DNA of 17,314 bases, taken from Anaerolineae bacterium. GTDB taxonomy: Bacteria > Chloroflexota > Anaerolineae > Epilineales > JAANWY01. The stretch lies in assembly GCA_046753605.1 (NCBI GenBank), contig JBHHTZ010000021.1, forward strand, positions 1 to 17,314, given 5' to 3'. The position numbers and the translations under genes were made by a program. A model generated the notes under the pieces. It searched no databases, was not told the DNA's origin, and was given only the letters and a program-made list of their open reading frames with translations. Shown piece by piece: positions 542-14,943 of the stretch. Every line of letters starts with the position of its first letter. Position 1 is the stretch's first letter.

Positions 542-1000
542 GTGGGTTTCGGCAGTCAAAACCTCAAGCCTGTTCGTGGGGTAGTTCGGCACGACGCCGA
601 CGTTCCCGATGCCTGCATCGACGGGCTGATCCTGTTCCCTGTCCTCGAGGACCTGCCCTTCCTGGCCCGCCCGCTGACGCAGGAAGAGAAAGGGCGGGCA
701 GAGGACATGGCCGGCATGTGGGGCATCGAGGCCATCGAGGAGTCGGTCCCGATCTCGGTGATCGGCACCGGGCCGGACCTAAACGCCGCCACCGACAACG
801 GGCTGGAACGCGCAGCAAAGTTGCTCGACATGCCGGTGCCCGAGGTGAAGAACCGGGCGACCATCACCGGCGCCATTGAGATTGGCCGGCATCCCGGTGT
901 GGTTCAGGTCACGTTCCGCGCGCCGGCGGACAAGCTGGAAGAACTGGGCCTGCTGGGCTTCGCCCGTGATCAGTACGGCGTCGGCCAGGCATCAGTTTAG
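542..1000 (+). CDS. Acetamidase/formamidase-family C-terminal fragment (probable gene remnant), 152 aa, GTG start
   Basis: ESVPISVIGTGPDLNAATDNGLERAAKLLDMPVPEVKNRATITGAIEIGRHPGVVQVTFRAPADKL resembles the C-terminal 'tiGsa..ledAar.A..eli.wl...gl...eAy.l.s.agdlrisq.vd' region of FmdA/AmdA-family amidases. The N-terminal half of that family (about 150 aa) is missing. The GDxHAxQGDGE-type segment is replaced by RPLTQEEKGRAE. In-frame TAG at 533-535 limits the ORF. The SD is weak. Confidence 0.4.
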   Translation: MGFGSQNLKPVRGVVRHDADVPDACIDGLILFPVLEDLPFLARPLTQEEKGRAEDMAGMWGIEAIEESVPISVIGTGPDLNAATDNGLERAAKLLDMPVPEVKNRATITGAIEIGRHPGVVQVTFRAPADKLEELGLLGFARDQYGVGQASV

Positions 1001-2064
1001 ATAACCGACCAGGCGTGAAACTTAGCCTGGCACGGCCGGCCATTGGCGAAGAGGAACTCACCGGCCTCGGGGAAGTAAAGCACTGTGGAGATAGTAGCGG
1101 AGTGAGGCTCAATCTCCGGATGCCTGCAGATGGCATCCTGTGAACGGCCGTGGCTGGTCATCAATGCCTGCGCCCAGCCGGCGCCCACCTGGCCCTGAGC
1201 GGCTTGTAATGCCGCCGTGACCCTGGCATGCCGGCGCTCGGAGTTCCCGCGCAGATCCGCCGGATTGCGATCCACCCATTGGTCACGTAGCAACTCTGTG
1301 ACAAAGTGGTTGGTGCTGACGACAAAGCCGTCCTTGGGATGAATTACGCCCTGATGCGCGTGACCCGCCTCGAAGACAGCCACGTCACCCGTGGCGTCAG
1401 CAACTACCAACGTGCCGTCGCCAATGTGGGACACGCCCCGCAGGTAATCCAGAGCAGATTTTACGCTGTCATGGTACTCCAGGCACGCCATTTCGACGGA
1501 GTAGCGCGCCACACCGGGACCGATGTCCAGCGAAGTGACGTGGGTGTCGGCCACGGCCAGGCCGGCCTCGTTCATGCCTGAACTGAACACCGCTGGACTG
1601 CCGGCGCTGGTCACGTACGCATAGCGGTATCCCTCGGCGGGACGGGCGCGGGCCAGACATTGCAATGGCAGGTGAGCCAACCGGTAATCGCGGTTTTTCG
1701 CCAGAATCGGGGTGCCGTCCCGCGCAATCGGTGCAGCCGCCGCCCACGCCGTGCAGCCTTCGGCGTGGGCAGCGGCGACCCTACGATCCTCCAGGTACGA
1801 AGCGATGGTATAGCGGAAGAAGGGGTCCCACTCCAGTTCGAGCGCGTCGGCGATACCGCGCAGCATCTCCACCGTCGGAAGGGCTGTCACCTCCCAGGCT
1901 GACCGGAGCTCTGTCACCAGGGGCTGCACGTCCGCCTCGGACTGCGCCAGCTTCGCCAGGCGCTGATCCACGGCCTGTAAGAAAATAGGCCGCAGATCAC
2001 GAATCTGGTGGCCGTGCTGCCGGCCCATCTCATAGTGCGTGCCGGCCAGTTCGAGGACCCTCAT
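997..2064 (-). CDS. Peptidase C45 family Ntn hydrolase / acyl-CoA:6-aminopenicillanic-acid acyltransferase-like protein
   Basis: 355 aa. N-terminus [21 protein letters not shown]. Candidate nucleophile context EGCTAWAA followed by ILAKNRDY, then GMNEAGLAV and STNHF, all typical of the AAT/C45 family. Its ATG overlaps the upstream ATPase stop by 4 nt (ATGA at 2064..2061). Confidence 0.8.
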   Translation of the reverse strand: MRVLELAGTHYEMGRQHGHQIRDLRPIFLQAVDQRLAKLAQSEADVQPLVTELRSAWEVTALPTVEMLRGIADALELEWDPFFRYTIASYLEDRRVAAAHAEGCTAWAAAAPIARDGTPILAKNRDYRLAHLPLQCLARARPAEGYRYAYVTSAGSPAVFSSGMNEAGLAVADTHVTSLDIGPGVARYSVEMACLEYHDSVKSALDYLRGVSHIGDGTLVVADATGDVAVFEAGHAHQGVIHPKDGFVVSTNHFVTELLRDQWVDRNPADLRGNSERRHARVTAALQAAQGQVGAGWAQALMTSHGRSQDAICRHPEIEPHSATISTVLYFPEAGEFLFANGRPCQAKFHAWSVI

Positions 2065-3176
2065 GTTTCAACCTGCACCGAACCCGTGTCTACCCGCGAT
2101 GCTGCGAGTTGGTCATCGGCCACGGGATGATCGTCGTAGATCCAGCACGCCACCTCCTGTCCGCCCACCTGGAAGAAGGGCGGGTACCTATTCTCGCAGA
2201 TGTCACCTGCCTTGGTGAAACAGCGGGGATGGAACGGGCAACCGGAGGGCGGATCGATCGAGCTGGGCACGCTGCCGGATAGGATAATCCGTTCCCGCCG
2301 GGCCTCCTTCCGGACACGGGGGATAGCCGCCAACAACGCCTGCGTATAGGGATGCCGAGGCTCCTCGAAGAGATGGTCCGTCGGTCCCATCTCGACGATG
2401 TGGCCCAGGTACATCACCGCCACCCGATCGCTGATGTAGTTGATCACGCTGAGGTCGTGGGCAATGAATAGATACGTAAGATCGAATTCCTCCTGGAGCT
2501 CTTCCAGAAGATTGATGACCTGGGCTTGAATCGAGACGTCCAACGAAGACACCGGCTCATCGGCCACGATGAAGCGGGGTTGCATGGCCAACGCTCGGGC
2601 GATGCCGATCCGTTGTCGCTGACCACCGGAAAACTGATGAGGGTAGGAATCGATGTGGTGCTTGCTCAGCCCAACACGATTTAGGAGCTGGATCGTCGCC
2701 GCCTCACGTTCAAGGGGATCGGTGACACCCCGGTGGTACAGCGGCGTGCCGATGATGTCGCGCACCGGCTTACGGGGATTCAACGAAGAGTACGGGTTCT
2801 GAAAGACGATCTGGGCCAGGCGATAATACTTCACTTCCTGGGGGGTATCCGTGCCATTCAACGACGCAACGACTTTGTCTTCCCGAAGAGGATGTCCTTG
2901 AAAGGAAATCTCACCCGACGTCGGCTCGCAGAGGCGAGTTAGAACACGGCCCAGTGTCGTCTTGCCACAACCGCTTTCACCCACCAAGCCCAGGGTCTCA
3001 CCAGGCCAGATGCGCAGATCCACCCCATCAACGGCTCGGACAATCTTCTCTCGGGCCTGCGCCAACACCCGCGTCAAGATGCTTGGCCGGATGAGGAAGT
3101 ACTTGCGGATGTTTCGGGCCTCAATCAGCGGGGGGTCAGTTCTGTCAGTGTTTAGATTCCTCATCGATTTGCTCAC
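2061..3176 (-). CDS. Oligopeptide/dipeptide-type ABC transporter ATP-binding protein (OppF/DppF-like)
   Basis: Walker [10 protein letters not shown], signature [15 protein letters not shown], Walker [13 protein letters not shown], and a C-terminal oligopeptide-ATPase extension ([18 protein letters not shown]). GTG start at 3176. An alternative ATG is at 3164. Confidence 0.9.
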
Positions 3177-3189
3177 AATGACCTGCGGT

Positions 3190-3232
3190 GTGAAACGTGA
3201 TGCGCGAGAGAGAAAACGCCATCACGTTTCAC
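3190..3232 (-). repeat. Intercistronic hairpin: perfect 13-bp stem (3190-3202 / 3220-3232), 17-nt loop
   Basis: gtgaaacgtgatg ... catcacgtttcac. It overlaps the last codons and stop of the OppD-like gene and sits just upstream of the OppF-like start. No U tract follows on the minus strand, so it is not a classical intrinsic terminator. Confidence 0.6.
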
Positions 3233-4301
3233 GTTTTGCGCCCTCGCTCTGGACCTCGTCACTCCAATCCCAATCCTCTTCGCGCGCGTAGTTCAGATGG
3301 ATCAAACAACGGTTGATGTGGCCGGCCCCCGTCTCAATCATAGGGATTGGGCCTTCATCGCACACCGGCTGATGATGCGGACAACGCGGCGCGAAGGCGC
3401 AGCCCACCGGAAGACCGACCAGATCTGGCACATTGCCGGGGATTGGCCGCACACGCTGACCTCGTACAGCGATGCTTGGCCGGCACTCAAGCAACCCCTG
3501 CGTGTATGGATGTTGCGGACTCTCGACGACCTGATCGACGGTGCCACGCTCTACGATGCGGCCGGCATACATCACAGCAATCGTGTCGCAGAATTCAGCG
3601 GTTAATGCCAGGTCATGGGTAACCAGGATGATGGCCGTGCCGTGTTCCCGGTTGATCTGCCACATCAGATCCATGATCTGGGCCTGGATGGTGACGTCTA
3701 GCGCGGTGGTGGGCTCATCGGCCAGGAGCAAGGCCGGCCCGCACACCAACGCAATAGCAATGAGCGCGCGCTGCTGCATGCCTCCCGAGATCTGATGCGG
3801 ATACGCCGCATACCGATCCATGGGCGAGGAGATACCCACCTCGCGCATCACCTCAAGCACGCGCTCCTTTTCGCGGCGCCACTGCGCAAAATTGAAGGGC
3901 CACGGCAGCCGTGATCCATCCAGGATGCGATGCAGGCGCAGCGCCTCGCGGATCTGCTCACCCACAGGGAAGGCCGGATTCAGGGTGGAAAGAGGATCCT
4001 GGAAGATCATAGCGATTTCCTTCCCCCGGATAGTGCACATCGCTCGCTGAGATAGCGCTCGCAGGTTCTGGCCCCGGAACAGAATCTCACCCCGGGCAAT
4101 ATGTCCGGGCCGGTGGATCAGCCGCAGGACGGAGAGCAGTATAGTGCTCTTCCCGCAACCCGACTCACCCACAATGCCCAAGATTTCCCCCTCGTTCAGT
4201 GTGAGGTTGATACTATCTACTGCCTGCACTACCCCGCGATTGGTGGGATAGACCGTGCTCAAATTGCGAAGTTCCAGTAGCGCTTCTGCTCCGTATCCCA
4301 C
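3222..4301 (-). CDS. Oligopeptide/dipeptide-type ABC transporter ATP-binding protein (OppD/DppD-like)
   Basis: Walker [10 protein letters not shown], signature [15 protein letters not shown], Walker [14 protein letters not shown]-loop VTHDL, and C-terminal [22 protein letters not shown] start at 4301. Confidence 0.9.
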
Positions 4302-4311
4302 CCCTTCTGAC

Positions 4312-4536
4312 TTACCTCCTCTCTACTTCGGCCACGATGGCTGCGATCCGCCGGCTAGCCTCCTCGCCCAGTGGGGGTGGCTGGTGCTGCTCCAGGATCC
4401 GTGCGACTGTCTCACCGGCCCGCTCCCGGAGGGACATTGCACCATTCATCGAGCCCTGGCAAATGCGATCAATCTCGTTCTCGGTCAAGGGCCGCAGGTA
4501 ATGACCCTTGAGTCCGACGCGGTCTAGGCCAGCCAT
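4312..4536 (-). CDS. Small hypothetical protein (74 aa) embedded between the permease and ATPase genes
   Basis: The ATG at 4536..4534 is 2 nt after the OppC-like TGA (4541..4539). Its stop is 10 nt before the OppD-like GTG. Sequence: MAGLDRVGLKGHYLRPLTENEIDRICQGSMNGAMSLRERAGETVARILEQHQPPPLGEEASRRIAAIVAEVERR. The longer 111-aa track ORF begins inside the permease gene and its N-terminal part looks non-coding. No family is securely recognised. Confidence 0.4.
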   Translation of the reverse strand: MAGLDRVGLKGHYLRPLTENEIDRICQGSMNGAMSLRERAGETVARILEQHQPPPLGEEASRRIAAIVAEVERR

Positions 4537-4538: not shown

Positions 4539-5525
4539 TCACTCGATCCTCAACCTTGGATCCAGGACATCCCGCAACCCCTCCCCAAACACATTGATGG
4601 AGAGCACCAGCAGTAGGATCGCGATGCCGGGGAAGGTGGAGACCCACCAGGCGACCAGCAAATAGTCGCGACCAGCCGCCACCATGGAGCCCCAGGCCGG
4701 CGTGGGTGGCTGGATACCCAGGCCCAAAAAGCTGAGACTCGCTTCCATGATGATCATGTGCCCCATGCGCAATGTGCCCAGCACCAACACGGACTGGATG
4801 ATGTTCGGTAAAATCTCCTGGGCAATAATGGCGGCGTTGCTCTGGCCAGTGACCTTGGCCGCCTCCACGTATTCCTGCGTCTTCTCCGACAGCATCTCAC
4901 CGCGCACCAGCCGGAAGAACTCCACCCAGCCCTTGAACGTCAGCGCCAAGATCAGGTTCGTGAAGCCGGGTCCCAGGAAGGCCATGACCCCGATAGCGAA
5001 GATGAGGTACGGGAAGGCCAGCAACAAGTCCGCAAACCGTGACACCAGACTGTCGAGCCGGCCACGATAGTAGCCGGTGATGGCGCCCAGGAACGTTCCA
5101 ATGACAACGGAGATGCCTACCGACAGAAGCCCGACGGCCAGCGAGATGCGGGCACCGAATACGATGCGCGTCAGGAGATCGCGGCCCTGCGCGTCCGTGC
5201 CCAACGGATACGACCAACTCCCCTCCAGATGCCAGGCCGGTGGATCCAGGCGCAGCCGCAGATTCCCCAGCGAGGGGTCGTGCACTGTGATCTGCTTGGC
5301 AAAGATAGCTGCTAACACATAGACCAGGACGACGATACCCCCCAGCATCGCCAGGCGATAGCTGCGCAGTTCGTCAAGGAAGCCGGCCAGGCCCTGGCGC
5401 CACAGCCTCAGGCGAACACGCCACAGATAGGCTTGCCGGGCTACCGGCGTGTCAACTTGCGGAGCAACGTCCAGTAGAAGACCTCCTGTTACACAGTACG
5501 CAATACGCTTCACGATATGCCACAC
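4539..5525 (-). CDS. ABC transporter permease (OppC/DppC-like)
   Basis: Multi-span membrane protein with a BPD-transporter core (SRFADLLLAFPYLIFAIGVMAFLGPGF.., EYVEAAKVTGQS.., LPNIIQSVLV). The start is uncertain. The GTG at 5525 has no SD. A strong AGGAGG (5487..5482) sits 7 nt before an in-frame CTG (5474..5472). No ATG, GTG or TTG occurs in frame until Met59. Confidence 0.85.
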   Translation of the reverse strand: MWHIVKRIAYCVTGGLLLDVAPQVDTPVARQAYLWRVRLRLWRQGLAGFLDELRSYRLAMLGGIVVLVYVLAAIFAKQITVHDPSLGNLRLRLDPPAWHLEGSWSYPLGTDAQGRDLLTRIVFGARISLAVGLLSVGISVVIGTFLGAITGYYRGRLDSLVSRFADLLLAFPYLIFAIGVMAFLGPGFTNLILALTFKGWVEFFRLVRGEMLSEKTQEYVEAAKVTGQSNAAIIAQEILPNIIQSVLVLGTLRMGHMIIMEASLSFLGLGIQPPTPAWGSMVAAGRDYLLVAWWVSTFPGIAILLLVLSINVFGEGLRDVLDPRLRIE

Positions 5526-5562: not shown

Positions 5563-6573
5563 TCACAACAAAATCTTCGGGTTCAAATACGTATACAATA
5601 CGTCAACAATCAAGTTAGCCATAACGAAGGTGAAGGCGTAAACCATCACAGTTCCCTGCACCAGCGGGAAGTCCCGCTCGAAGATGGCCTTCACGACCAG
5701 CCGGCCCAACCCTGGCCACCCGAACACCGTTTCGACGATCATGTTACCGCCCAGGAGCACGCCGACCTGCAAACCGACCACGGTGACAGTGGGAATCAGC
5801 GCGTTGCGTAGTGCATGCTTAAAAACGACGTGCCACTCAGGCGCGCCTTTGGCCCTGGCCAGCGTCACGTAGTCCGAGCGCAGTGTCTCCAGCATGCTGG
5901 ACCGCAGCACCCGTGCTACGACAGCCGCTACCGGCGCGCCCAGGGTTATGGATGGCAGCGCAAGGTGTTTCAAGCTGGCAGCCAGGGCGGCACGGTTCCC
6001 CGCGATCAAGCTGTCCAAGACATACAGGCCCGTGACCTCTTCCAACTGCACGCCGTAGCCGATTCGGCCTTGAACAGGCAGCCAATGCAGGCGCACAGCG
6101 AAGATCAGGATCAGCATGATGCCGAGCCAGAATCCAGGCATCGAAATGCCGAGGAAAGCCCCGGCCATACTGAACCGATCCAGCGGCGAGTTCTGGCGCA
6201 CAGCGGAGATGATGCCGATGGGAATCGCCACAACCAGACCGAAGATCAGAGCCCCTAACGCGAGCTCAATGGTTGCCGGCAAGCGCTCCGCGATGAGGGT
6301 GCTCACCGGCCGCTTCTGGACATATGAGTAGCCCAGATCGCCGCGCACGACGTCCTCGAGAAACAACCACAGTTGCACGTACAGCGGTTCGTCCAGATGG
6401 AACTCGTGGCGCAACTGCTCCATCTCGCCAGCGGAAACTGCCCCACTCTGCCCCATCATGATGTCTACCGGGTCCCCCGGCGTCAGGCGCATGAAGAAGA
6501 ACACCACAATGGCCACGCCAAACACGATGGGGATGGCGACCAAGATGCGCTCTACAACCTTGACAGCTCTCAC
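5563..6573 (-). CDS. ABC transporter permease (OppB/DppB-like)
   Basis: 336 aa. The N-terminus ..RILVAIPIVFGVAIVVFFFMRLTPGDPVDIMMG is typical of DppB/OppB. It has a BPD-transporter core (DYVTLARAKGAPEW..HALRNALIPTVTVVGLQ). GTG start at 6573 is preceded by GAGGGGAG. Confidence 0.9.
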   Translation of the reverse strand: MRAVKVVERILVAIPIVFGVAIVVFFFMRLTPGDPVDIMMGQSGAVSAGEMEQLRHEFHLDEPLYVQLWLFLEDVVRGDLGYSYVQKRPVSTLIAERLPATIELALGALIFGLVVAIPIGIISAVRQNSPLDRFSMAGAFLGISMPGFWLGIMLILIFAVRLHWLPVQGRIGYGVQLEEVTGLYVLDSLIAGNRAALAASLKHLALPSITLGAPVAAVVARVLRSSMLETLRSDYVTLARAKGAPEWHVVFKHALRNALIPTVTVVGLQVGVLLGGNMIVETVFGWPGLGRLVVKAIFERDFPLVQGTVMVYAFTFVMANLIVDVLYTYLNPKILL

Positions 6574-6623
6574 AGGTTACACTCCCCTCACCACAACTCC
6601 CTCAACTAAGGGCGTGTCAAGAA

Positions 6624-6744
6624 CTCGACTTTGGCCATTTTGAGGAGTGAGCACGCCTACGTGCGAATGGCTCACAAGATACGGCACGTGGGCGTGCCTT
6701 ACTCCTCAATATATTGTGGTATTAGCAGAATGGCCAAAGTCGAG
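6624..6744. repeat. 121-nt nested palindromic element (MITE/REP-like or structured RNA)
   Basis: The outer stem is a perfect 16-bp stem: ctcgactttggccatt at 6624-6639 against aatggccaaagtcgag at 6729-6744. The inner stem is imperfect and about 24 bp: ttgaggagtgagcacgcctacgtg at 6640-6663 against cacgtgggcgtgccttactcctcaa at 6685-6709. Confidence 0.7.
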
Positions 6745-6836
6745 AAGAAAAAACTTCCCGCTTTCTCGCCGTCAGTCGAGCCAGACATGCGTGACTCCTG
6801 GCAGAATACGACCTGGCAGCGAGTTCGCCTGAGCAT

Positions 6837-6890
6837 CCCTTCGACAAGCCGCCGTGGTGAGCCTGTCGAACCATCAGGACGCCGCCTGAG
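6837..6890 (+). repeat. Dispersed palindromic repeat, copy A (intergenic)
   Basis: The 42-nt core cccttcgacaagccgccgtggtgagcctgtcgaaccatcagg (6837-6878) is identical to 10968-11009 and to the reverse complement of 16769-16810. The internal arms ttcgacaag / cctgtcgaa can pair. Confidence 0.9.
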
Positions 6891-6915
6891 CGGCTGCGAA
6901 CGGAGTGAAGCAGCA

Positions 6916-6973
6916 TATCGAAGGGTGCGGCCACTCCAGGCCAATGTGTCATTGCGAGCCGCACCCTTCGATA
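6916..6973. repeat. Perfect 16-bp inverted repeat with 26-nt loop
   Basis: tatcgaagggtgcggc at 6916-6931 against gccgcacccttcgata at 6958-6973. The loop contains gtcattgcgag. Confidence 0.8.
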
Positions 6974-7034: not shown

Positions 7035-8756
7035 CTACGGAGTCAGGCATACATCATGCAGGTTGATGCGGCTGTCCGAAGCCGGCTCCCAGTTCTGGAC
7101 ACGGATCGATGCAGCCTCGGCTTCCTCTGGCAGCACCAGGAACACCGCCGGCGTCTCTTCATAGACGATCTCCTGAGCTTCGTCGTAGATCTCGTGGCGC
7201 TTCGCCGGATCTGCTGTGGTCTCGCCTTCCTTGATGAGCTCGTTTACTCGCTCGTTGCTGTAGGTCGAGAAGTTTCCGCGACCGTAGGGCGTCCCTTCCA
7301 CGCGGCCGTGCCACTTGGCCTCGAAGTGGCCGACTGGATCAAAGGCCGAGTCGCCCCAGTTGTCCAGGTAGGCCATCCGCTCCCCGGCGAGCAGTTTCGG
7401 CTTCACCACACTGTACTCCCAGATGCGGACGCCGGCATCGATGCCCAGAGCCCGGAATTGGCCGGCCACCGCCTCTGTCAGAGTACGATGCAGCTCGATC
7501 GTATCGATCGTGAAGGCGAACGGCTGACCATCCTTGTCCAGGATACCATCGCCGTCCGAATCAGTCCAGCCGGCTTCCTCAAGCAGAGCCAGTGCTTTGT
7601 CTGGATCGTATGGGTACGGCTTCAGATCTTTATTGACGAAGTTGTTGAACGGCGACAGTGGCCCCGGGAGCGCCACCGCGCGCCCACCGTAGAGTTCATC
7701 AATGATGAGCTGTTTATCCACAGCGTAGTTCAGCGCCTGGCGAGCCCGTACGTCGTCGAAAGGCGGCCGGTTGACGTTCATCTCCATCCACCTGGGCTGG
7801 GTGCTCGGCGCTGTCTTCACCTGAATCCCGGGTGTCTGGGCCAGGGTATCAACCAGCTCCGGCGGCACCGCCTGGATGATGTCCACCTCGCCGGCTAGCA
7901 ACGCCGCGACGCGGGTCGACGCTTCGGGGATCACGCGGAAGACCGCACGCTCCGCACAGGCCGGTCCCACCGGCTCCAGGTCAGGTGACCCGCCGTAGTA
8001 GTCATCGAAGCGCTCCAGCACCACCTCTTCCAGACCCGACTTGGCAGAGACGAACTTGAACGGCCCGGTGCCTACGGGCTTCTCGATGAAACCTTTCGTA
8101 CCCACTTCCTCCAGGTAGTGCTTGGGCACGATCTGCTGATGCACGATGAGCTGCATGGCCGGCGGCCAGGGGCCGCTGAAATGCATCACTACGCTGTAGT
8201 CGCCCGTCTTCTCAACGGCCTCCAGGGGCGCGATGAGGCCCTTGCGCGGGGAGGTATGGGCCTCCGGGTACTCGATAGCGTTCTCCCGGATGATGCGGTT
8301 GAACGTGAACACCACGTCGTCAGCTGTCATCTCCGTGCCGTCGTGGAACCTGACACCCCTGCGGAGCTTGACCTCCAACGTCTGGTCGTCCAACCAGTTC
8401 ATCTCCTCCGCCAATTGCAGGTGGACGCCGCTGCGAGTGTCACGGGTGACCAGGCCGTCGAGCATGTTGCGGATCACCGTCTCCGATTGCCGGCTACGAT
8501 GATCAGCCGGGTCCAGCGACGTTGGAGCGGAAGCCAGGCCCACAACAATCGTCTGACGCCCCGGAACAGGAGTGGGCGTGACGACCTTCTCGACCTGCTC
8601 TTTCTCCTTAACCACCACCGTCTCTTTGACCACGACGGTTTCCTTAACAGTCTTCTCCTCGACGCGAACCTCTGGCGTCGGCTGCGCACAGGCACCGACC
8701 ACCAGGCCCAAGAGCAAAAAAACGGCCAGGATGATCAGGTTCTTTCGGTTGAACAT
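7035..8756 (-). CDS. ABC transporter substrate-binding lipoprotein, family 5 (peptide/opine/nickel type)
   Basis: 573 aa. Signal peptide plus lipobox (LLLGLVVGAC, Cys23). A repetitive linker VKETVVVKETVVVKEKEQVEKVV is coded at about 8580-8648. The mature domain has family-5 SBP character (TIVVGLASAPTSLDP.., FKFVS.., RPPFDDVRARQALNYAVDK.., WGDSAFDP). SD AAGGAGGAGG precedes the ATG. Confidence 0.85.
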   Translation of the reverse strand: MFNRKNLIILAVFLLLGLVVGACAQPTPEVRVEEKTVKETVVVKETVVVKEKEQVEKVVTPTPVPGRQTIVVGLASAPTSLDPADHRSRQSETVIRNMLDGLVTRDTRSGVHLQLAEEMNWLDDQTLEVKLRRGVRFHDGTEMTADDVVFTFNRIIRENAIEYPEAHTSPRKGLIAPLEAVEKTGDYSVVMHFSGPWPPAMQLIVHQQIVPKHYLEEVGTKGFIEKPVGTGPFKFVSAKSGLEEVVLERFDDYYGGSPDLEPVGPACAERAVFRVIPEASTRVAALLAGEVDIIQAVPPELVDTLAQTPGIQVKTAPSTQPRWMEMNVNRPPFDDVRARQALNYAVDKQLIIDELYGGRAVALPGPLSPFNNFVNKDLKPYPYDPDKALALLEEAGWTDSDGDGILDKDGQPFAFTIDTIELHRTLTEAVAGQFRALGIDAGVRIWEYSVVKPKLLAGERMAYLDNWGDSAFDPVGHFEAKWHGRVEGTPYGRGNFSTYSNERVNELIKEGETTADPAKRHEIYDEAQEIVYEETPAVFLVLPEEAEAASIRVQNWEPASDSRINLHDVCLTP

Positions 8757-8954: not shown

Positions 8955-11900
8955 CTAGGCTGGCACCAACGCACGCTCATGTACCGAGACTTCCACATCG
9001 AGCGGCAGGAGCTCACGTTTCATGACCCGCAGCGCCTGCTCCGGATGCACCCGGCCATACAAACCACCCAGGATACCCACCAGGTACTTGGCATCCAGCA
9101 ACATCGGTCCCGTGGGCCGCAGGATGTGCGACTTCTCAGGATCATACAGCACGCCGCTGGCAATCAGTGCCAGATCTTCCTTGAAACCAGGTTCCCAATC
9201 CCGACACTTGTGATAAATCGTGCCGCCGATGAGCAGCACCGTCACGGGCTGGTTGAAGTAGTTCACGCCATACTGCAGGAAATACGTCTCCGTTTCGTCC
9301 ACCCGACCAACGTGCTTGCCCGTTGCCACGGCCATGATCTCCTTTGCCAGGAAGGACCGCGCGGCATTTTCCAACACCGTCTCCGGAACTCGGTGCGGGT
9401 TCTGAGTGAGCCAGCTCAGGTAGTTGTCCAAGTCCACCTGGTAGGTACCGTCGTAGCTGCGGACGAAGCGCCGAAACTGATCGTCGCCTGGACCGAAGTC
9501 GCTGGGGAAGCGGACAGCGAGGTAGCGACTCATTTCGCGCGCCATCGCATCATTCTGGAAGCGCTCCAACTCCTTCAGGTTCTCAGCATTGTAGCTCAGG
9601 CCATACTTGCCTTCCACGCGACGGTACACCAGCGGCACGTTCGGGGTCTTCAGGATTGTGCGCTTCACCCTGCGTCGATGATCCTCACCGGGATAGAGGT
9701 ACAGCGGGTTATCATCCACGTTAGAGTAGAAGTCCGTCGTCGCGCCACCGATGTCGAGGGCCACGATGTTACCCAGACCCTCTTCACCACCGTATCCCTG
9801 CGCCAGCAGGTTGATGCCCCGAAAAGTCGCTCGCGGGGTCGGCATGAACGGTGCATCCATATACTCCTCAACCACGTCGAAGCCCTTGCCTCGGATGATC
9901 ACCGTCTGGAAGAGCTCGCGGATGGCCTCGTTTACCACCTCGATGTGGAACTCGTTGATCTCGGGCATGATGTTGGGCGTCACGCGGATGTCCACATCGT
10001 GGTGGTGGAAGATATTCTCGATCTGCTCACGGATGTCCTGGTTGCCGGCGTAGATCACGGGTACGCCGTACTCGGTGTAGGCGACATACTTGGCCGCCTC
10101 AGCCAGCATGCGGGCGTTGTGGAGCTGTGTCCCGGTGTCGCCGCCCTGATCCGTGCCACCGGCCAAGAGAATGATCTCCGGCTCGTCAACTTCGTAGATG
10201 GCGCGCGCCTGCTCGGGTGTTAGCTTGCCTTCGTAGGTGCCCAAGAGCTTGGCGCCGGCCGTCAGCGCTGCCAACTCGGCCGCGAAGCCCGATTCCTCCT
10301 TCACCAGTGACACGGTCACCATCTTGAGGCCACCCTTCGCGCTGGAGCAAGGCAGACGCACCACGAACTCGCCCATCTTCTCCGCCAACGGCTGCCAGTC
10401 GCCACGCTCTTCACATGCCTCCAATACCCCTAGCCCATTGGCCAAACCGGCGCGGATGTCCTCAACCGTGGTGGGCACGTAGCGCAACTCGAAGATCTCG
10501 TCCTTGGTGTCGAAGATGCCAACCTTCGTATAGGTGCTGCCAAAGTCCACCACCAACACCTTCTCGTCCGCCAGACCGGTCACGCCGATTTGTTTGCGAA
10601 ACCTGGCCACGGTTTCGTCGTCGATCTCTTCGACCTCAGCGTCCTCCACGATAAAGGTGTCGTCATCGGCGCGCGTCACGTCTTTGTAGAAGTACCACGG
10701 ATAGCGCTCACGGACGAGGTCCACGCGTTCGAGCTCACTGCCGACTTTGATGCCGTCCCACTCGTCGATGCGACACATGCCGCCGACGACCTTGGTGCGG
10801 CAGGCGCCGGCCATCTCGTACCGCCGGTCGACGACCGTGATGTGTGGGCCCTGGAACAGGCCAATCTGCAACGCCAGGTCTAGCGTGTCAGCGCTGATCA
10901 GGCCGCAGGCCCCGGTCGGGTAGTTCGCCTCATCGATCAGGCTGAGCAACATGGTCTCGAAGTTCTTCCCTTCGACAAGCCGCCGTGGTGAGCCTGTCGA
11001 ACCATCAGGGCGTCGCCCAGGATCCTCTTCCGGCTCATGAGCCCACTCCCAAAAGTTCTCCGGTGTGACAGGGCCGTCATACCCGCCGAGGATGGCGCCA
11101 TGAAGCAAGTTGTACATGGCACCCTGCTTCAACTCCAGCTTGCGGTCCTTCAACACCGGATCATTCCAGATATCAGGCATGTGCCCTTTGACGAAATCCC
11201 AGCAAACCTGCTTCGTAATCTCGCAGGACTCGATGATGTCGTCGGCGCCAGCCTCGTGGTGGGCCTCGGAGTGGGTGACTACGTGCAAGATGTCGGGCTC
11301 CAGATAGAGCTGGGTGTAGATGCCAAAAGCGAGATGTCCTTTGGCCTCATTCAGATTAGGCGGGAAGCTGGGCAGTCCCGATCGTGTCTGTTTGATGATA
11401 CTGAAATCGAAGTGGCGTGTGAGAGGCTCGGCCAACTCGTAGGCCGCCTTCATCTTCGCCAGATCATCCAGCGCCGAGATTTCGGGCGGCAACTCGAACA
11501 TCATCTGCATCACGTAGTGCTTGACGCTCTTCTTCAGCGCGATGACGGCACAGAGGACATGGTCGGCAACCTGCATGTCGTCGCTGGCATAGCGCAGGCC
11601 CCACTGATGAGGGTCGTTGATCTCCACCGGCTTACCCTGTTCAGTCCACCATTCAATCGTGCGGAAATGTTCATCGAAAGAATCGCGGATGCTGATGGGG
11701 CCGCGCCCGTCCAGTTCGTTGTAGAAGAAGATAGGCACAGCCGGAAAAGCCATATTCAGATGCTCTTCCCACAGCTTGGCCAGCTCGATCAGCTCGTCGG
11801 TGCCAGTGTAGATACGGGTCAGGGGGTAGTTGCCCCGTTGCGAAGCAGCTTTCAGACGCTTCAGGTCTTCTATGGTGCGGATCGGCGCACCACCCTGGCC

Positions 11901-12761
11901 GGCTAGATACCTGTCAGGCTCCTCTTCGCCTCGGATGAACTTGGCGAGAAGCTCTTGCGAGGTCTGATCCGGAGCCAGAGAGACGATTTCGAGAGCGCCG
12001 GCATCGGACAGCTTCTCAATCGCCTTCACCGTGGGTTCGATGCTTTCATCAGCGATGCCGATGTGAGCGCGGATAATCGGACGGTTCTCCCGCTCACGCA
12101 CCTGGCGAATGCGCTCAACCAGGTAATCAGACCATTCAAGCTCCTTCGCCTCGTGGGCTGGCGGCACCCGATGAGCGAAGCGCTCCAGCTCCTCCATCGT
12201 CACGAAATCGTCCACTACGAGTTCGAAGAAGCCCTGGAAGTGCTCCTTGTCTTTGTACTCTTCAGCTACCTCATCCAGGTCAAAGTGCCTCTCGTCCTCG
12301 CGGACGAAGCGGTCCGGTTCCAGCGGTAGGCCGGTCATAGCTCGGACCACGTTGGCTGCCGGCCGCAATCCCCCGAAGGTGTAGCGAATGCCACTTTCCC
12401 GAGGGTGCAACCCGTGTTTGGTCGCCGATTCCACGAACTCAGTGATCAGCTTGTCCACGTGCAGGTCGCCCAGCCGCATGGACACACCGACGACCTCGGG
12501 GCGCGCTTCGCGGATCTTGTTGATGACTTCCTGGATCGGGACGGCTGGCCCCAGCTTAACAGTCACATAGCCCAAGCCCAGATCTTCCATCCACCCGGCA
12601 AAGTTTTCAACACCCAGATTGTGGACACATTTGCCGATGGCTCCTACCATGACCCGCCGCTTCGTGGTGAGCTCCGTCCCGAGCCCGTCGAGGGGCTTGT
12701 CGAACCGCTTGTGATCCGAATCTGGCGGCTTTTCTTCGGCCTTCTCGTTTGATAAATCCAT
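8955..12761 (-). CDS. Large fusion protein: B12-binding (GlmS/MutS-like) domain + GlmE/MutE-like TIM barrel + GlmL/MutL (glutamate mutase L, ASKHA reactivase-like) domain
   Basis: 1268 aa. ATG at 12761 with SD CAGGAGGT at a 9-nt spacing. (1) aa ~36-140: VMVGAIGKCVHNLGVENF..VVGVSMRLG..RYTFGGL has the layout of the cobalamin-binding Rossmann domain (DxHxxG...SxL...GG), with Cys at the Asp position. (2) aa ~205-695: RPIIRAHIGIADESIEPTVKAIEKLSDAGALEIVSLAPDQTSQ ... LTRIYTGTDELIE ... PVEINDPHQWG ... HVVTHSEAHHEAGADDIIES ... GLFQGPHITVVDRRYEMAGACRTKVVGGMCRIDEWDG parallels, as I recall it, clostridial GlmE (ITMAQPRAGV..ADFLPSTIDAYTRQ ... QARHGTPD ... INREPFGPLTG ... IVKTPHEAIGIPT ... [30 protein letters not shown]). 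(3) aa ~733-1268: KVLVVDFGSTYTKVGIFD ... CSSAKGGLKM ... IILLAGGTDQGGDTGTQLHNARMLA ... VIYAGNQ ... MPTPRA ... IVALDIGGATTDFYS closely follows GlmL/MutL (IDFGSTYTKV, ACSSAAGGLKM, ILLAGGTDGGN, VVAGNK, MPTP, VVDIGGATTD). Domain (3) is high confidence, domain (1) good, domain (2) moderate. Confidence 0.8.
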   Translation of the reverse strand: MDLSNEKAEEKPPDSDHKRFDKPLDGLGTELTTKRRVMVGAIGKCVHNLGVENFAGWMEDLGLGYVTVKLGPAVPIQEVINKIREARPEVVGVSMRLGDLHVDKLITEFVESATKHGLHPRESGIRYTFGGLRPAANVVRAMTGLPLEPDRFVREDERHFDLDEVAEEYKDKEHFQGFFELVVDDFVTMEELERFAHRVPPAHEAKELEWSDYLVERIRQVRERENRPIIRAHIGIADESIEPTVKAIEKLSDAGALEIVSLAPDQTSQELLAKFIRGEEEPDRYLAGQGGAPIRTIEDLKRLKAASQRGNYPLTRIYTGTDELIELAKLWEEHLNMAFPAVPIFFYNELDGRGPISIRDSFDEHFRTIEWWTEQGKPVEINDPHQWGLRYASDDMQVADHVLCAVIALKKSVKHYVMQMMFELPPEISALDDLAKMKAAYELAEPLTRHFDFSIIKQTRSGLPSFPPNLNEAKGHLAFGIYTQLYLEPDILHVVTHSEAHHEAGADDIIESCEITKQVCWDFVKGHMPDIWNDPVLKDRKLELKQGAMYNLLHGAILGGYDGPVTPENFWEWAHEPEEDPGRRPDGSTGSPRRLVEGKNFETMLLSLIDEANYPTGACGLISADTLDLALQIGLFQGPHITVVDRRYEMAGACRTKVVGGMCRIDEWDGIKVGSELERVDLVRERYPWYFYKDVTRADDDTFIVEDAEVEEIDDETVARFRKQIGVTGLADEKVLVVDFGSTYTKVGIFDTKDEIFELRYVPTTVEDIRAGLANGLGVLEACEERGDWQPLAEKMGEFVVRLPCSSAKGGLKMVTVSLVKEESGFAAELAALTAGAKLLGTYEGKLTPEQARAIYEVDEPEIILLAGGTDQGGDTGTQLHNARMLAEAAKYVAYTEYGVPVIYAGNQDIREQIENIFHHHDVDIRVTPNIMPEINEFHIEVVNEAIRELFQTVIIRGKGFDVVEEYMDAPFMPTPRATFRGINLLAQGYGGEEGLGNIVALDIGGATTDFYSNVDDNPLYLYPGEDHRRRVKRTILKTPNVPLVYRRVEGKYGLSYNAENLKELERFQNDAMAREMSRYLAVRFPSDFGPGDDQFRRFVRSYDGTYQVDLDNYLSWLTQNPHRVPETVLENAARSFLAKEIMAVATGKHVGRVDETETYFLQYGVNYFNQPVTVLLIGGTIYHKCRDWEPGFKEDLALIASGVLYDPEKSHILRPTGPMLLDAKYLVGILGGLYGRVHPEQALRVMKRELLPLDVEVSVHERALVPA
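10968..11021 (+). repeat. Dispersed palindromic repeat, copy B, lying in-frame inside the mutase-fusion CDS
   Basis: 10968-11009 is 42/42 identical to copy A, and similarity continues to about 11021 with 2-3 mismatches. On the coding (minus) strand these 54 nt are 18 codons, PGRRPDGSTGSPRRLVEG (aa 581-598). Confidence 0.9.
12664..12706 (-). repeat. Diverged repeat-family copy inside the N-terminal extension of the mutase-fusion CDS
   Basis: gtggtgagctccgtcccgagcccgtcgaggggcttgtcgaacc is about 79% identical (34/43 by hand) to 15285-15327. It shares cgtggtgagc and tgtcgaacc with the type-1 core. It is translated as RFDKPLDGLGTELTT (aa 19-33), upstream of the B12-domain start. Confidence 0.55.
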
Positions 12762-12813: not shown

Positions 12814-12814
12814 G

Positions 12815-12850
12815 ACGCATCAGACGATACTCACGCATCACGACGCATCA
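12815..12850. repeat. Three direct copies of ACGCATCA (TGATGCGT on the coding strand)
   Basis: Copies at 12815-12822, 12833-12840 and 12843-12850. The second overlaps the ODH stop codon. The third lies within the last ODH codons. Confidence 0.5.
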
Positions 12851-14013
12851 TAGACTAAGTCTTTCAGCTCGTAGAAACCATACCGCTGCGGCGCACGTGT
12901 GGCTGCCGCATCGCGGCCCTGCAACTTTCCGTCGACCAGATATTCCTTTTCAAGTTGCTCCTGTGCCCACGTGATGACCTGATCCATGGTTGGCGTTGCC
13001 ACACCGGCCAGCTCCGCGATGCTCCGTGTCACCACCAAGCCATAGGGCACATCTTCGGCCAGATAGCGGGCGTGAAAATCCGGCGCCAATCCGCCCTCGG
13101 CTGGGCGCATGGGGGCACGGAGGCCGGCATAGCTGCGGTTCGTCACAAAACAGCTCTGCAACGTAGTTGGATCAGCGATATCCTTGCCGTACGAGCGTCG
13201 TGCCCACTCATCCAGCGACCGCACAGCAGACAGATTGAGATCCGGGTAGTGGCGCTCCAAGACGGCACGCAACGTCTGGACTTCATCGCTCAGTTGCTGG
13301 AGGATGCCGGCTATGGTGGCGTTGATGCCCTGGTAGAAGGACGGTGCTTTGGCATAGGGCCGGCCATCCCAATCGTGGAACAGACCGTACATTATGCCGG
13401 GGTGAATGAGCTGCCCGGTGTTGGCCAGCGTGAGACCGAGAAGGCTTGCCGCATGTTGCAGGCGAATCCCCAACGGATCACTGAGCAACCCGGAGATTTT
13501 GCCGGCATAGGATGGCGGCAAAGCCGCCAGATCGACTTGCTTCTTGGTACCGAGGATTGTGACTTCCTCCCCATACATGTTGAGCCGGCAGGCCCACGGC
13601 AGCGTCTGCAAACCAAAGACGACGATGGACGCCGTCTTACCCCCCAGAACATCCTCCACACACCAGTCAAATCCGCCGCGAGCCGGCAGCGCTCCCAACC
13701 AAGCCCCGTCGTCGATGTAAGGAGCGATGTCGCGTAGAACGATCTCGTGCGCAAAGGCCGGCAAAGCCAACAACACGAGCCGCGAGCCCGGAATGACCTC
13801 CGCCGGATCGGCACTGATGCGAGCGGGCCGGCCCACGACACGACCACGTGGCATGACAGCGGTTACACCGCCTCGAGCTTCCATGGCCTGACGCCAGCGT
13901 TGAGTCTCGTCGCCGTACGGAGCGTACACGTTCACGGCCCAGTCGCGCCGGCCGGCTAACAAGCTGACCAGAGCGTGAGCTCCGTTCCCACCTCCACAGA
14001 CAGCAACTTGCAT
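12838..14013 (-). CDS. NAD(P)-dependent opine dehydrogenase (octopine/nopaline dehydrogenase family)
   Basis: 391 aa. N-terminal dinucleotide fold MQVAVCGGGNGAHAL. Central/C-terminal LANTGQLIHPGIMYGLFHDWDGRPY and FHARYLAEDVPYGLVV are characteristic of opine dehydrogenases. The ATG is 1 nt after the RpiR stop, with GGAG at -7. Confidence 0.8.
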   Translation of the reverse strand: MQVAVCGGGNGAHALVSLLAGRRDWAVNVYAPYGDETQRWRQAMEARGGVTAVMPRGRVVGRPARISADPAEVIPGSRLVLLALPAFAHEIVLRDIAPYIDDGAWLGALPARGGFDWCVEDVLGGKTASIVVFGLQTLPWACRLNMYGEEVTILGTKKQVDLAALPPSYAGKISGLLSDPLGIRLQHAASLLGLTLANTGQLIHPGIMYGLFHDWDGRPYAKAPSFYQGINATIAGILQQLSDEVQTLRAVLERHYPDLNLSAVRSLDEWARRSYGKDIADPTTLQSCFVTNRSYAGLRAPMRPAEGGLAPDFHARYLAEDVPYGLVVTRSIAELAGVATPTMDQVITWAQEQLEKEYLVDGKLQGRDAAATRAPQRYGFYELKDLVYDAS

Positions 14014-14014
14014 A

Positions 14015-14878
14015 CTACTCCGTGATTAGAAGGTTTCGTTTGCGATACGCCGTGTCGACCCGCCGCAGGGCATCCATGCTCTGCTCCGGCACCCGATACG
14101 AGAGAGCGGCAATGAGCACGTTGATGAGCGCGATGGTCGCCGTCGGTGATAGGCTATGCGTGACTCCATCCGTAGCCACCTCGAAAGCATAGTCCGCTGC
14201 CTGTGCCAGCGGTGAGACGACGCTGTCGGTGATCGCCACGACCGGTGCTCCCTGTTGACGAGCTGCGTACACCGCCTCCACTGTGGAACGTACGTAGCGC
14301 CACAGATCGATAGCAATCAGGAGCGTATCCACACCGAGTTGTGCTGTGTCCACAGCCAAGGAAAGCCCACCGTCCAGGGCTGCCCGCGCATCGAAGCCAA
14401 TGACCTTCAGTGAGTGGGCCAAGAACAGCGCCGGCACTGTGGAGAGCCCCGAACCAACGACAAGGATATGGTCCGCACGCACGATCTCTTCCAGGACAGC
14501 ATCAAGCTGCTGCGCAGACAGTCTGCTGGCTGTGCGTTGAAGATTGGTGATGTCGGTGTGAAAGACCTGTTGGGGAATGTCATCTGCGGCCGGAGGTGTG
14601 GTCAACCGCTCTTGCATGCGCTCGACGGTAGTCAGATAACTGGGGAGTTCCTCACGGATCGTAGCCTGGAGTTCAGAGAAACCCTCGTACCCCAAGCCCT
14701 GAGCAAAGCGAACCACGGTGGCAGCGCTGGCATCGACCTTGTCCCCCACCTCGCCGGCTGACGCAAAGGACACGAAGTACTTGTTTTCCAGAACGAAGCG
14801 CGCCAGCCGTCTCTGCTTACCACTGAATCCATCGAGGGATGCCCTGATCCGTTCTTCTAAGGTGTCTGTCGAACCCAT
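14015..14878 (-). CDS. MurR/RpiR-family transcriptional regulator (HTH_6 + SIS domain)
   Basis: 287 aa. N-terminal HTH: RRLARFVLENKYFVSFASAGEVGDKVDASAATVVRFAQGLGYEGFSELQ. SIS sugar-isomerase-type domain: ILVVGSGLSTVPALFLAHSL .. LLIAIDLWRYVRSTVEAV .. GAPVVAITDS. SD CAGGAGGA precedes the ATG. Confidence 0.9.
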   Translation of the reverse strand: MGSTDTLEERIRASLDGFSGKQRRLARFVLENKYFVSFASAGEVGDKVDASAATVVRFAQGLGYEGFSELQATIREELPSYLTTVERMQERLTTPPAADDIPQQVFHTDITNLQRTASRLSAQQLDAVLEEIVRADHILVVGSGLSTVPALFLAHSLKVIGFDARAALDGGLSLAVDTAQLGVDTLLIAIDLWRYVRSTVEAVYAARQQGAPVVAITDSVVSPLAQAADYAFEVATDGVTHSLSPTATIALINVLIAALSYRVPEQSMDALRRVDTAYRKRNLLITE

Positions 14879-14914
14879 AGCAGTCCTCCTGAAGGCAATT
14901 CGTTGGCCGGGCCT

Positions 14915-14943
14915 ATTATATCACAGGCCGCCGAGAATTGCAA
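14915..14943 (-). promoter_or_regulatory. Sigma-70-type promoter of the rpiR-led operon: -35 TTGCAA (14943..14938), 17-nt spacer, -10 TATAAT (14920..14915)
   Basis: The minus strand reads TTGCAAttctcggcggcctgtgaTATAAT. The -10 is about 37 nt upstream of the rpiR-like ATG (14878). Confidence 0.65.

Follow-up and report, generated by a model that had tools for sequence, protein, structure and literature searches.

The closest described counterparts of the locus reported here come from several systems. Glutamate mutase, as known from Clostridium and Escherichia coli O157, comprises GlmS/GlmE together with GlmL (also MutS/MutE and MutL), and isobutyryl-CoA mutase IcmF is a B12 mutase fused to its own maintenance protein, a MeaB-type G-protein chaperone. 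Among the opine dehydrogenases (ODHs), the octopine dehydrogenase of the scallop Pecten maximus is a terminal glycolytic enzyme which uses arginine and has no mutase partner. ODHs or opine chemistry in the company of importers are found in the cnt operons (staphylopine, pseudopaline, yersinopine) and in the opine catabolic regions of Agrobacterium, which is known to cleave octopine and nopaline with flavin oxidases and not with an ODH and a B12 mutase. Here we analyse a stretch of 17,314 nucleotides (nt) from an Anaerolineae bacterium, referred to at its full length as the window, whose minus strand carries at positions 997-14943 a locus of nine genes and one gene remnant, all co-directional (as judged from open reading frame (ORF) calls and Pfam/NCBIfam profiles), and among them an ODH beside a fused, putatively B12-dependent mutase. 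Our literature search found nothing linking ODHs with B12 mutases and no characterised pathway with this gene set, in agreement with the preliminary description of this DNA, which could match the locus to no known pathway.

The enzymes of this locus come from known superfamilies; what is new is that a mutase family with a signature of its own, so far unannotated, lies in a widespread and unexplained two-enzyme module. In the window, this module consists of the following parts:

12838-14013, minus strand: opine dehydrogenase, 391 residues (PF02317, E 3e-34)
8955-12761, minus strand: fusion protein, 1268 residues, with a weak B12-binding match, a GlmE-like barrel and a MutL/GlmL part (E 5e-91)
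12357-12662, minus strand: S domain of the fusion, B12-binding and Rossmann-like, residues 34-135 (PF02310, E 6e-6, below cut-off; CVHNLG, then SMRL and FGG motifs)
10692-12134, minus strand: E-like domain of the fusion, a predicted TIM barrel, about residues 210-690 (fold and profile-profile comparison relate it to glutamate mutase subunit E)
9009-10559, minus strand: L domain of the fusion, a putative reactivase of the GlmL/MutL ASKHA type, residues 735-1251 (PF13941, E 5e-91, 306 bits)

That the two enzymes belong together is best seen from their distribution. A scan of one genome per GTDB species, with a 10-sequence alignment as query, yielded at least 583 stretches encoding a relative; the locus-level counts given below come from 83 related loci (numbered with the prefix L), in which ODH adjacency was counted by tblastn. 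More than 400 homologues of the fusion lie in Chloroflexota assemblies, with 72-98% identity among the best 120 listed. In 76 of the 83 loci, an ODH gene is the immediate neighbour of the S-E(-L) gene, and the seven exceptions all have less than 300 bp of upstream sequence. This adjacency persists in relatives down to 32% identity, in either order and often with overlapping stop and start codons, across Chloroflexota, Bacillota, Atribacterota, Bipolaricaulota, Ignavibacteriales, Spirochaetales, Thermotogota, Poribacteria and Asgard archaea. The complete gene set of the window (RpiR regulator, ODH, fusion, family-5 substrate-binding protein (SBP), permeases, ATPases and C45 enzyme) was found in 21 differently flanked loci, of which 15 keep the gene order of the window, five have the order RpiR-mutase-ODH-transporter-C45 and one has the transporter first; ODH, mutase, SBP, permeases and C45 occur together in 28 loci, and three long contigs with unrelated flanks carry the same nine genes. 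The recurrence of ODH, S-E-L fusion and family-5 SBP in other genomes, which the preliminary description had named as a check on itself, is thereby borne out.

The remaining genes are less constant. Elsewhere, TAXI-TRAP or DctM-type transporters take the place of the ABC importer (the importer of the Atribacterota loci is a TAXI-TRAP system), GntR regulators (GntR-UTRA, GntR-FCD) that of RpiR, and instead of or beside C45 there are Peptidase C26, Amidohydro_3 (D-aminoacylase-like), GGT, a D-glutamate-cyclase-like or racemase-like protein, or ligases. The ODH-mutase pair is thus the conserved core, and transporter, C45 and RpiR are lineage-specific, exchangeable additions. A search with residues 1-735 of the fusion against 1.8 billion representative proteins returned 397 clusters, comprising S-E-L fusions and S-E-only proteins of 540-630 residues. 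The neighbours of the S-E-only group are Ddl-like ATP-grasp ligases, an AsnB-like enzyme, S-adenosylmethionine (SAM) methyltransferases and an MFS pump, or else the protein is fused to a glutathione-synthetase-like ATP-grasp domain. Individual fusions of S-E proteins include one to a glutathione-synthetase/RimK-type ATP-grasp domain (L005/P0132, followed by a Peptidase_C26 gene) and one to Peptidase_M15_3 (P0136). At or near two S-E/ODH pairs there are URO-D-like genes (L079, 11515-12558; L085, 11544-12491), a family that includes methylcobalamin:acceptor methyltransferases.

Neither the window nor the 83 loci gave a tblastn match to methylaspartate ammonia-lyase, canonical GlmE/GlmS or class-I fumarase/mesaconase, the ammonia-lyase and FumD queries being those of E. 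coli O157. The ten genes also lack a Pfam or NCBIfam match to citramalate lyase, for which no separate search was made. The preliminary description had remarked on the missing partners of glutamate mutase, correctly for the ammonia-lyase and the mesaconase and, for citramalate lyase, as far as profile matches go.

In public records the fusion is called 'glutamate mutase L' or 'TIGR01319 family'. Its L domain passes TIGR01319 (214.4 bits, cut-off 204.05), misses the NF040745 equivalog (296 bits, cut-off 475), is 28% identical to GlmL of E. coli O157 and keeps both ASKHA phosphate-binding motifs intact (DFGSTYTK at residue 739, DIGGATTD at residue 1003). Apart from this domain, the profiles pick up only a weak B12-binding part at residues 36-134, and residues 140-730 have no match in Pfam, NCBIfam or PDB sequences. 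PF06368, the Pfam model of GlmE, gave no match to the window protein even at E 10, and among distant S-E relatives it is marginal in a few S-E-only proteins (25-27.5 bits, cut-off 26.6). PDB sequence searches with the fusion and with the family profile returned B12-binding domains only and no GlmE, the profile matching corrinoid proteins and mutase B12 domains (E 5e-8). It is the fold that identifies the E-like domain. An AlphaFold2 model built on 43 family members (pLDDT 88) has GlmE structures 1cb7_B and 6h9e_B as its top Foldseek matches (for 1cb7_B, E 1.6e-13, target TM-score 0.66 and 14% identity over about 505 aligned columns), followed by ornithine and lysine aminomutases and methylmalonyl-CoA mutase, with IcmF structures among the weaker matches; the predicted model shows the GlmE-type TIM-barrel fold. 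Likewise, comparison by hhalign with a GlmE profile, for which the E. coli O157 gene was the starting point, gave a probability of 80% and E 1.5e-5. At the level of the predicted fold, the reading S-E-L is correct.

While the architecture resembles that of glutamate mutase, the signature residues do not follow it throughout. The cobalamin motif at residues 45-50 (window 12612-12629) reads C45-V-H47-N-L-G50, so that the Asp of DxHxxG is replaced by Cys and the His and Gly are kept; the S domain of the window does not carry the glutamate-mutase motif DxHxxG as such. CxHxxG is found in 141 of 145 family members, and the Asp is kept only in the most distant ones (22-26% identity). The residue that holds the adenosyl ribose, which we take to be Glu330 of GlmE, is present: in the hhalign alignment E329 of E. 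coli GlmE corresponds to the invariant E499 of the fusion (HSEA against PHEA). The fusion is a very divergent, putative B12 mutase of predicted GlmE fold and not a glutamate mutase in the strict sense. The preliminary description, which spoke of a glutamate-mutase-like S-E-L fusion, was right about the three parts, the E part by fold and profile-profile comparison; a strict glutamate mutase would differ in the cobalamin motif and apparently in its substrate residues, to which we return below.

An important clue to the chemistry comes from the ODH side. Six ODHs from a hot-spring metagenome have been expressed (mODH-45, -47, -48, -49, -55 and -582); with pyruvate they prefer L-aspartate, then L-glutamate, are L-specific and mostly use NADPH (Telek et al. 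2024, PMC10787698). Their kinetics with L-aspartate were poor (KM 0.5-25 mM, kcat no higher than about 1 per s), which suggests to us that the true substrate was missed, and 3-methylaspartate was outside the substrates tried; the same study showed that Arg at position 111 and Gly at position 198 (ArODH numbering) set the specificity, a double-mutant swap switching it to L-aspartate, and it mentions neither gene context, nor a neighbouring mutase, nor a physiological role (PMC10787698). From the sequences in the supplement of that study, we found mODH-45 and mODH-47 to be 66-76% identical to ODHs directly after S-E genes in five Chloroflexi loci. The nearest named protein (92%) is attributed by NCBI to Anaerolinea thermophila, and this ODH gene lies 72 nt after that of a 546-residue S-E protein 36% identical to that of the window.

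The window ODH has the features of its two-domain family, with the Rossmann motif GGGNGAH at residue 7, the catalytic His/Asp (His204 in TGQLIHP, RYLAED at residue 316) and a full-length alignment to the Pecten octopine dehydrogenase (PDB 3c7a, E 1e-89, 40% identity). Its Arg112 and Gly200 form the 'acidic amino acid' pair of ArODH positions 111 and 198, which is found in 60 of 63 mutase-linked ODHs across all groups, the window's included; the scallop enzyme has Gln118 and Tyr208 at these positions and ArODH has Ala and Asn. In the ligase-associated S-E-only group, each of the 10 ODHs carries the NADPH-determinant Arg; the window ODH has no Arg there. Judged from these residues, the mutase-partner ODHs appear to have been selected for acidic amino acids, and we propose as the obvious candidate substrate 3-methylaspartate, an analogue of aspartate produced from glutamate by GlmE-type mutases.

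Several further observations concern the ODH. The genes after the mutase in L023, L050, L051, L059 and L062 encode another ODH subfamily (28-32% identical to the window ODH, 41-47% to the mODHs) in which the Arg/Gly pair is kept, and L031 has both types; this looks like non-orthologous replacement under a common functional constraint. The window ODH is also far nearer the scallop octopine dehydrogenase than the bacterial Arthrobacter enzyme (E 4e-18), which may point to an ancient transfer of the gene between bacteria and marine invertebrates. We considered and rejected a role of the ODH as cobalamin reductase for the mutase, as it conserves the catalytic and specificity residues of a true ODH, and orthologues form opines in vitro. 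We also gave less weight to D-glutamate as the central substrate, hinted at by D-glutamate-cyclase-, racemase- and D-aminoacylase-like neighbours, because the characterised ODH orthologues are L-specific.

Around this core, the window holds the following elements, given from the promoter onwards:

14915-14943, minus strand: sigma-70-type promoter (TTGCAA, 17 nt, TATAAT, with TG ahead of the -10 element, i.e. extended -10; 10 of 12 matches)
14015-14878, minus strand: RpiR/MurR-family regulator, 287 residues (HTH_6 PF01418, E 1e-10; SIS PF01380, E 9e-14)
7035-8756, minus strand: family-5 substrate-binding lipoprotein (SBP), 573 residues (PF00496, E 6e-83; signal peptide with lipobox VGAC)
6574-7034, minus strand: long structured intergenic region, 461 nt (hairpins at about 6917-6972 and 6625-6742; RNA fold z = -5.5)
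5563-6573, minus strand: ABC permease of DppB/NikB type, 336 residues (PF00528 and PF19300; NF045470, 354 bits, cut-off 350)
4539-5525, minus strand: ABC permease of DppC/NikC type, start codon uncertain (PF00528 and PF12911; below NCBIfam cut-offs)
4312-4536, minus strand: small ORF of 74 codons, remnant of an MttB-family (trimethylamine methyltransferase superfamily) gene (TIGR02369 positions 426-469 of 469, E 2e-5)
3222-4301, minus strand: ABC ATPase of DppD/OppD type (PF00005 and PF08352)
2061-3176, minus strand: ABC ATPase of DppF/OppF type (PF00005 and PF08352)
997-2064, minus strand: C45-family N-terminal nucleophile (Ntn) proenzyme, hydrolase or acyltransferase, 355 residues (PF03417, E 3e-14; NF040521, 181.7 bits, cut-off 85)

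An AGGAGG ribosome-binding site lies upstream of the rpiR ATG and clear sites of this type precede most genes. The junctions measure, in gene order, 1, 76, 198, 461, 37, 2, 10, 45 and -4 nt. Co-direction and conserved layout make a single transcript from the promoter to the end of the C45 gene plausible on sequence grounds, and only plausible because the 461-nt gap between SBP and permease is structured and holds internal terminator-like and promoter-like sites. Ten minus-strand genes behind one good promoter had been described before; coordinates, strand and promoter stand, and so do the four tight junctions, which proved exact on recount (1 nt between rpiR and ODH, 2 nt between permease and small ORF, 10 nt between small ORF and ATPase, a 4-nt overlap between ATPase and C45), and what falls away is the small ORF as a gene of the operon. 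It matches the C-terminus of an MttB-family protein and is 49% identical to that of the intact 494-residue gene product of L047 (3556-5040; PF06253, E 6e-89). Since 11 related loci, L047, L019, L033, L042 and L068 among them, have an intact gene of this family (about 494 residues) there, flanked by the second permease and the first ATPase, the small ORF is a deletion remnant, and we rejected it as a new small protein.

The gap upstream of the permease holds two long perfect hairpins, a terminator-like site (6698-6683) and a promoter-like site (6737-6708). Its hairpin arms occur only in the window and in contig CAZHMV010000017.1 (L006), and the SBP/permease gap of other relatives measures 55-95 nt; the insert may be a small mobile or repetitive element, or else serve mRNA stability or attenuation between SBP and permease. 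Contig CAZHMV010000017.1, from an uncultured Anaerolineales metagenome-assembled genome, is 97-100% identical to the window (97% for the L006 locus). An Rfam search of the window at a permissive threshold found no riboswitch, for cobalamin or otherwise, and gave two chance matches of plant microRNA models on the long hairpin. At 14879-14950, an inverted repeat GCAATTC/GAATTGC encloses the -10 region together with the beginning of the leader, and GGCC...GGCC flanks TATAAT; these repeats are possible operator sites for the RpiR regulator.

The RpiR regulator stays below all cut-offs of the NCBIfam equivalogs, and its gene is present in 32 of the 83 loci, mostly in Chloroflexota. The C45 enzyme, whose gene is present in 34, has a predicted self-cleavage site at Gly103/Cys104, across which PDB 3gvz aligns (E 9e-12), so that both the family model and the Gly-Cys site of the autoproteolytic Ntn family are found at the sequence level. 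The nearest solved structures to the SBP are binders of peptides, glutathione, agrocinopine and nickel. After its signal peptide, the SBP carries at residues 25-60 (8600-8690) a repetitive linker rich in Lys, Glu and Val, VKETVVVKETVVVKEKEQVEKVV (VKETVVVKE), which probably tethers the protein in a cell lacking an outer membrane.

The flanks of the locus contain no pathway genes by Pfam search, and apart from a Fic-family gene their ORFs are without a Pfam match. This gene, at 15421-16359 on the minus strand, encodes a Fic/DOC-family protein with a C-terminal HTH_17 and lies upstream of the operon, with about 480 nt of non-coding DNA before the promoter. On the same strand, positions 443-472 hold a perfect 12 of 12 consensus sigma-70 promoter (TTGACA, 18 nt, TATAAT) aimed at a 68-codon ORF (154-360) without a family match. 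No tRNA genes were found in the window.

Taken together, we tentatively favour, at somewhat less than even confidence, a substrate-regulated operon for uptake and breakdown, with an ODH for acidic amino acids and an adenosylcobalamin (AdoCbl)-dependent carbon-skeleton mutase of GlmE fold as its old core; in this lineage the mutase would be joined to its own B12-binding domain and to a GlmL-type, ATP-dependent reactivase. The family-5 ABC importer would take up an opine-type secondary amine in which pyruvate is combined with a C5 dicarboxylic amino acid (3-methylaspartate/glutamate type); the opine would probably arrive as an amide conjugate. The C45 Ntn hydrolase would cut the amide bond and free the opine, and the ODH with NAD+ would oxidise the C-N bond of this N-(1-carboxyethyl) opine to give pyruvate and a methylaspartate-type amino acid. 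In a last step the mutase would turn the branched methylaspartate-type skeleton into glutamate, so that pyruvate, glutamate and NADH would be the end products. Methylaspartate to glutamate is the thermodynamically favoured direction of the known mutase reaction. A pathway that ends at glutamate has no need of methylaspartase, mesaconase and citramalate lyase, which would account for their absence. Alternatively, the mutase may act first, on the intact opine (N-carboxyethyl-methylaspartate to N-carboxyethyl-glutamate), with the ODH acting afterwards; such a larger, tricarboxylic substrate would fit the apparent lack of conservation of the GlmE substrate residues. The N-substituted amino-acid conjugate envisaged earlier for this locus is narrowed by these data to one related to acidic amino acids, given that orthologues of the mutase-linked ODHs prefer L-aspartate or L-glutamate with pyruvate (PMC10787698).

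We infer a catabolic direction for the window operon, because the partners of the pair are importers (family-5 SBP with ABC transporter, TAXI-TRAP), hydrolases (C45, C26, Amidohydro_3, GGT) and effector-binding regulators, with no exporter, and because the window ODH lacks the NADPH-determinant Arg of the S-E-only group. With its ligases, methyltransferases and MFS pump, that group has the look of a synthetic counterpart, and S-E-only loci with an NADPH-type ODH and amide ligases may run the same two reactions synthetically. It is possible, if doubtful, that an undescribed natural opine stands behind both sides: a compound C8H13NO6, derived from 3-methylaspartate or glutamate by N-(1-carboxyethyl) substitution and perhaps further amidated or methylated, which some uncultured lineages would produce and others consume, with a new class of AdoCbl isomerase (Cys-x-His motif) acting on the opine itself and not on a free amino acid. 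Putative producers would be Asgard archaea, some Chloroflexi, Poribacteria and Thermotogota, equipped with S-E mutase, NADPH-type ODH, ATP-grasp or AsnB-like ligases, SAM methyltransferase and MFS pump; putative consumers would be Anaerolineae, Caldilineae, Bacillota and Atribacterota, with S-E-L mutase, ODH, importers, hydrolases and sometimes an MttB-type demethylase.

Several points weigh against uptake and breakdown of such an opine. The substrate-binding residues of GlmE, which we take to be three arginines and Glu171 (Arg100, Arg149 and Glu171 in Clostridium numbering, from the C. cochlearium structure), appear not to be matched: R99, R148 and E170 of E. coli GlmE align with Q269, Y318 and P340 of the fusion (hhalign; the alignment is locally of low confidence), and other arginines are invariant in the fusion family (R231, R295, R316, R353, R390, R460). 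The mutase substrate may thus not be free glutamate or methylaspartate. We hold the apparent loss of the GlmE substrate site as tentative, given the uncertainty of this alignment. The window ODH shares no more than 23-25% identity with the characterised mODHs, and its specificity is read from two residues. 3-Methylaspartate and its opine are proposals as substrates, the MttB-family gene of 11 loci has no explained role in such a pathway, and an operon of ODH and importer without an exporter could be biosynthetic. RpiR-family SIS domains usually sense sugar phosphates, of which the proposed pathway uses none. Finally, the permease at 5563-6573 passes the cut-off of NF045470, the 'Opp2B nickel ABC transporter permease' model, which fits a metallophore.

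This last point leads to the best-surviving alternative, which we nonetheless consider unlikely: synthesis and re-uptake of an opine metallophore, as in the cnt (staphylopine) systems, in which the mutase would make 3-methylaspartate from glutamate, the ODH would add pyruvate, the resulting tricarboxylic amine would chelate nickel or cobalt and the Nik/Opp-type importer would return the complex. An ODH next to an Opp/Nik-type ABC importer is just the layout expected, the permease exceeds its nickel model by 354 to 350 bits, and the SBP scores about as well against nickel/NikA-type models as against those of peptide binders; the product would be an aminopolycarboxylate, and an ODH pulling an unfavourable mutase equilibrium would account for the universal linkage of the two genes. 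Yet there is neither a nicotianamine-synthase-like CntL nor an exporter among the ten ORFs of the window by Pfam and NCBIfam, the CntA model reaches 93 bits against a cut-off of 800, and the regulators are RpiR or GntR and not Zur, Fur or NikR. The recurrent hydrolases (C45, C26, D-aminoacylase-like, GGT) are left unexplained by a metallophore, the window ODH is without the NADPH-determinant Arg typical of the ligase-linked group, and the importer of Atribacterota is of the TAXI-TRAP type, systems that carry organic acids.

Some of these hydrolases speak for a second alternative, to which we give a small probability: a new glutamate route fed by the import of cell-wall stem peptides or other gamma-glutamyl or D-amino-acid peptides. 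Here a hydrolase would free glutamate, the mutase would convert it to 3-methylaspartate, and the ODH would deaminate this oxidatively as an amino-acid dehydrogenase, with no opine involved, to 3-methyloxaloacetate and on to 2-oxobutyrate. The recurrent neighbours Peptidase_C26, GGT, Amidohydro_3, D-glutamate-cyclase-like PF14336 and Ala_racemase_N fit such a diet, as do the fusions to ATP-grasp or Peptidase_M15_3, the TAXI-TRAP importers, known for glutamate and C5 dicarboxylates, and the RpiR/MurR-type regulator, MurR/RpiR proteins being known from cell-wall recycling; the absence of classical downstream enzymes (tblastn for methylaspartase and FumD) is also in line with it. However, the ODH would have to use ammonia as the amine, which to our knowledge no enzyme of the ODH family does, the characterised ODH orthologues form true opines with pyruvate and are L-specific, and the glutamate-binding residues of GlmE appear not to be conserved.

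The MttB-family gene offers the starting point for a third alternative, in our judgement very improbable, that the S-E part is a corrinoid methyl-transfer protein and not an AdoCbl isomerase. It would work alongside methyltransferases of the MttB family and of URO-D/MtaA-like type, the substrate would be an N-methylated derivative of an amino acid, and the ODH would take the demethylated amine. Beside the intact MttB-family gene inside the transporter block of 11 loci and its remnant in the window, the URO-D-like genes near two S-E/ODH pairs, the SAM methyltransferases of the putative producer loci and the best PDB sequence matches of the S domain, which are corrinoid proteins of methyltransferase systems, are consistent with it. 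Against this stands the 500-residue domain whose predicted fold matches GlmE, ornithine/lysine aminomutases and methylmalonyl-CoA mutase and not methyltransferases, together with the conserved adenosyl-ribose Glu and the GlmL reactivase fused to S-E, reactivases of this type being known to us only with radical B12 mutases; moreover, the MttB gene is missing from most loci and decayed in the window. Lastly, a fortuitous adjacency of an ordinary peptide-uptake unit (transporter and C45) with an unconnected ODH and mutase, for which the 76-, 198- and 461-nt gaps would leave room as separate transcription units and with which the lineage-dependent transporter and hydrolase types would agree, is hardly credible, as it is contradicted by comparative data that show ODH and mutase as neighbours in every testable locus over very large phylogenetic distances and the full set in 21 loci with different flanks and the same members in three gene orders.

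Whichever substrate the pair turns out to use, it joins two enzyme families that are not known as partners, ODHs and B12 carbon-skeleton mutases, in at least 583 stretches from mostly uncultured anaerobes, including Asgard archaea. As neither Pfam nor NCBIfam has a model for the catalytic domain of the mutase, a family of B12 enzymes with an unusual CxHxxG motif and a built-in, putative reactivase has been hidden in annotation. The module also provides a physiological context, and a testable natural substrate, for metagenomic ODHs already assayed for biocatalysis. Anaerolinea thermophila is a cultured species, and the presence of the pair in sequences attributed to it makes the idea directly testable. 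Should the proposed opine exist, communities of sediments, digesters and hot springs would exchange a metabolite not recognised before and carry out a new B12-dependent step.

How, then, does the locus compare with the known systems? Like the cnt operons and the Agrobacterium opine catabolic regions, it combines an ODH or opine chemistry with an Opp/Nik-type or family-5 SBP importer, and the opine-binding family-5 SBPs AccA and AgaA are among the structural relatives of the window SBP. It differs from cnt in having no CntL, CntK or exporter among its ten ORFs, and, as with CntA, the scores for CntC (197 bits, cut-off 440) and for CntD and CntF (212 bits each, cut-offs 380-385) stay below those required. 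The window ODH shares the ODH fold, the catalytic His/Asp and the Arg/Gly pair with the mODHs (PMC10787698), whereas it belongs to another subfamily, 23-25% identical and without the NADPH-determinant Arg. With the octopine dehydrogenase of Pecten (3c7a) it has in common 40% identity, GGGNGAH, the catalytic His and RYLxED, and the two part ways at the specificity positions, Gln118/Tyr208 in the scallop enzyme against Arg112/Gly200. The fusion follows the same principle as IcmF, a B12 mutase joined to its maintenance protein, although the chaperone of IcmF is a P-loop GTPase and that of the fusion a putative ASKHA ATPase, and the barrel family and the substrates (CoA esters for IcmF) differ. 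Closest of all is glutamate mutase, which has the same B12-binding, TIM-barrel and GlmL-type ASKHA modules and the adenosyl-ribose Glu. In contrast to it, the fusion holds all three modules in one chain of 1268 residues, its barrel is 14% identical and gives no PF06368 match, CxHxxG stands for DxHxxG, and Gln, Tyr and Pro occupy the aligned substrate positions; and its S-E(-L) genes are never found beside methylaspartase or mesaconase and, where this can be tested, always beside an ODH.

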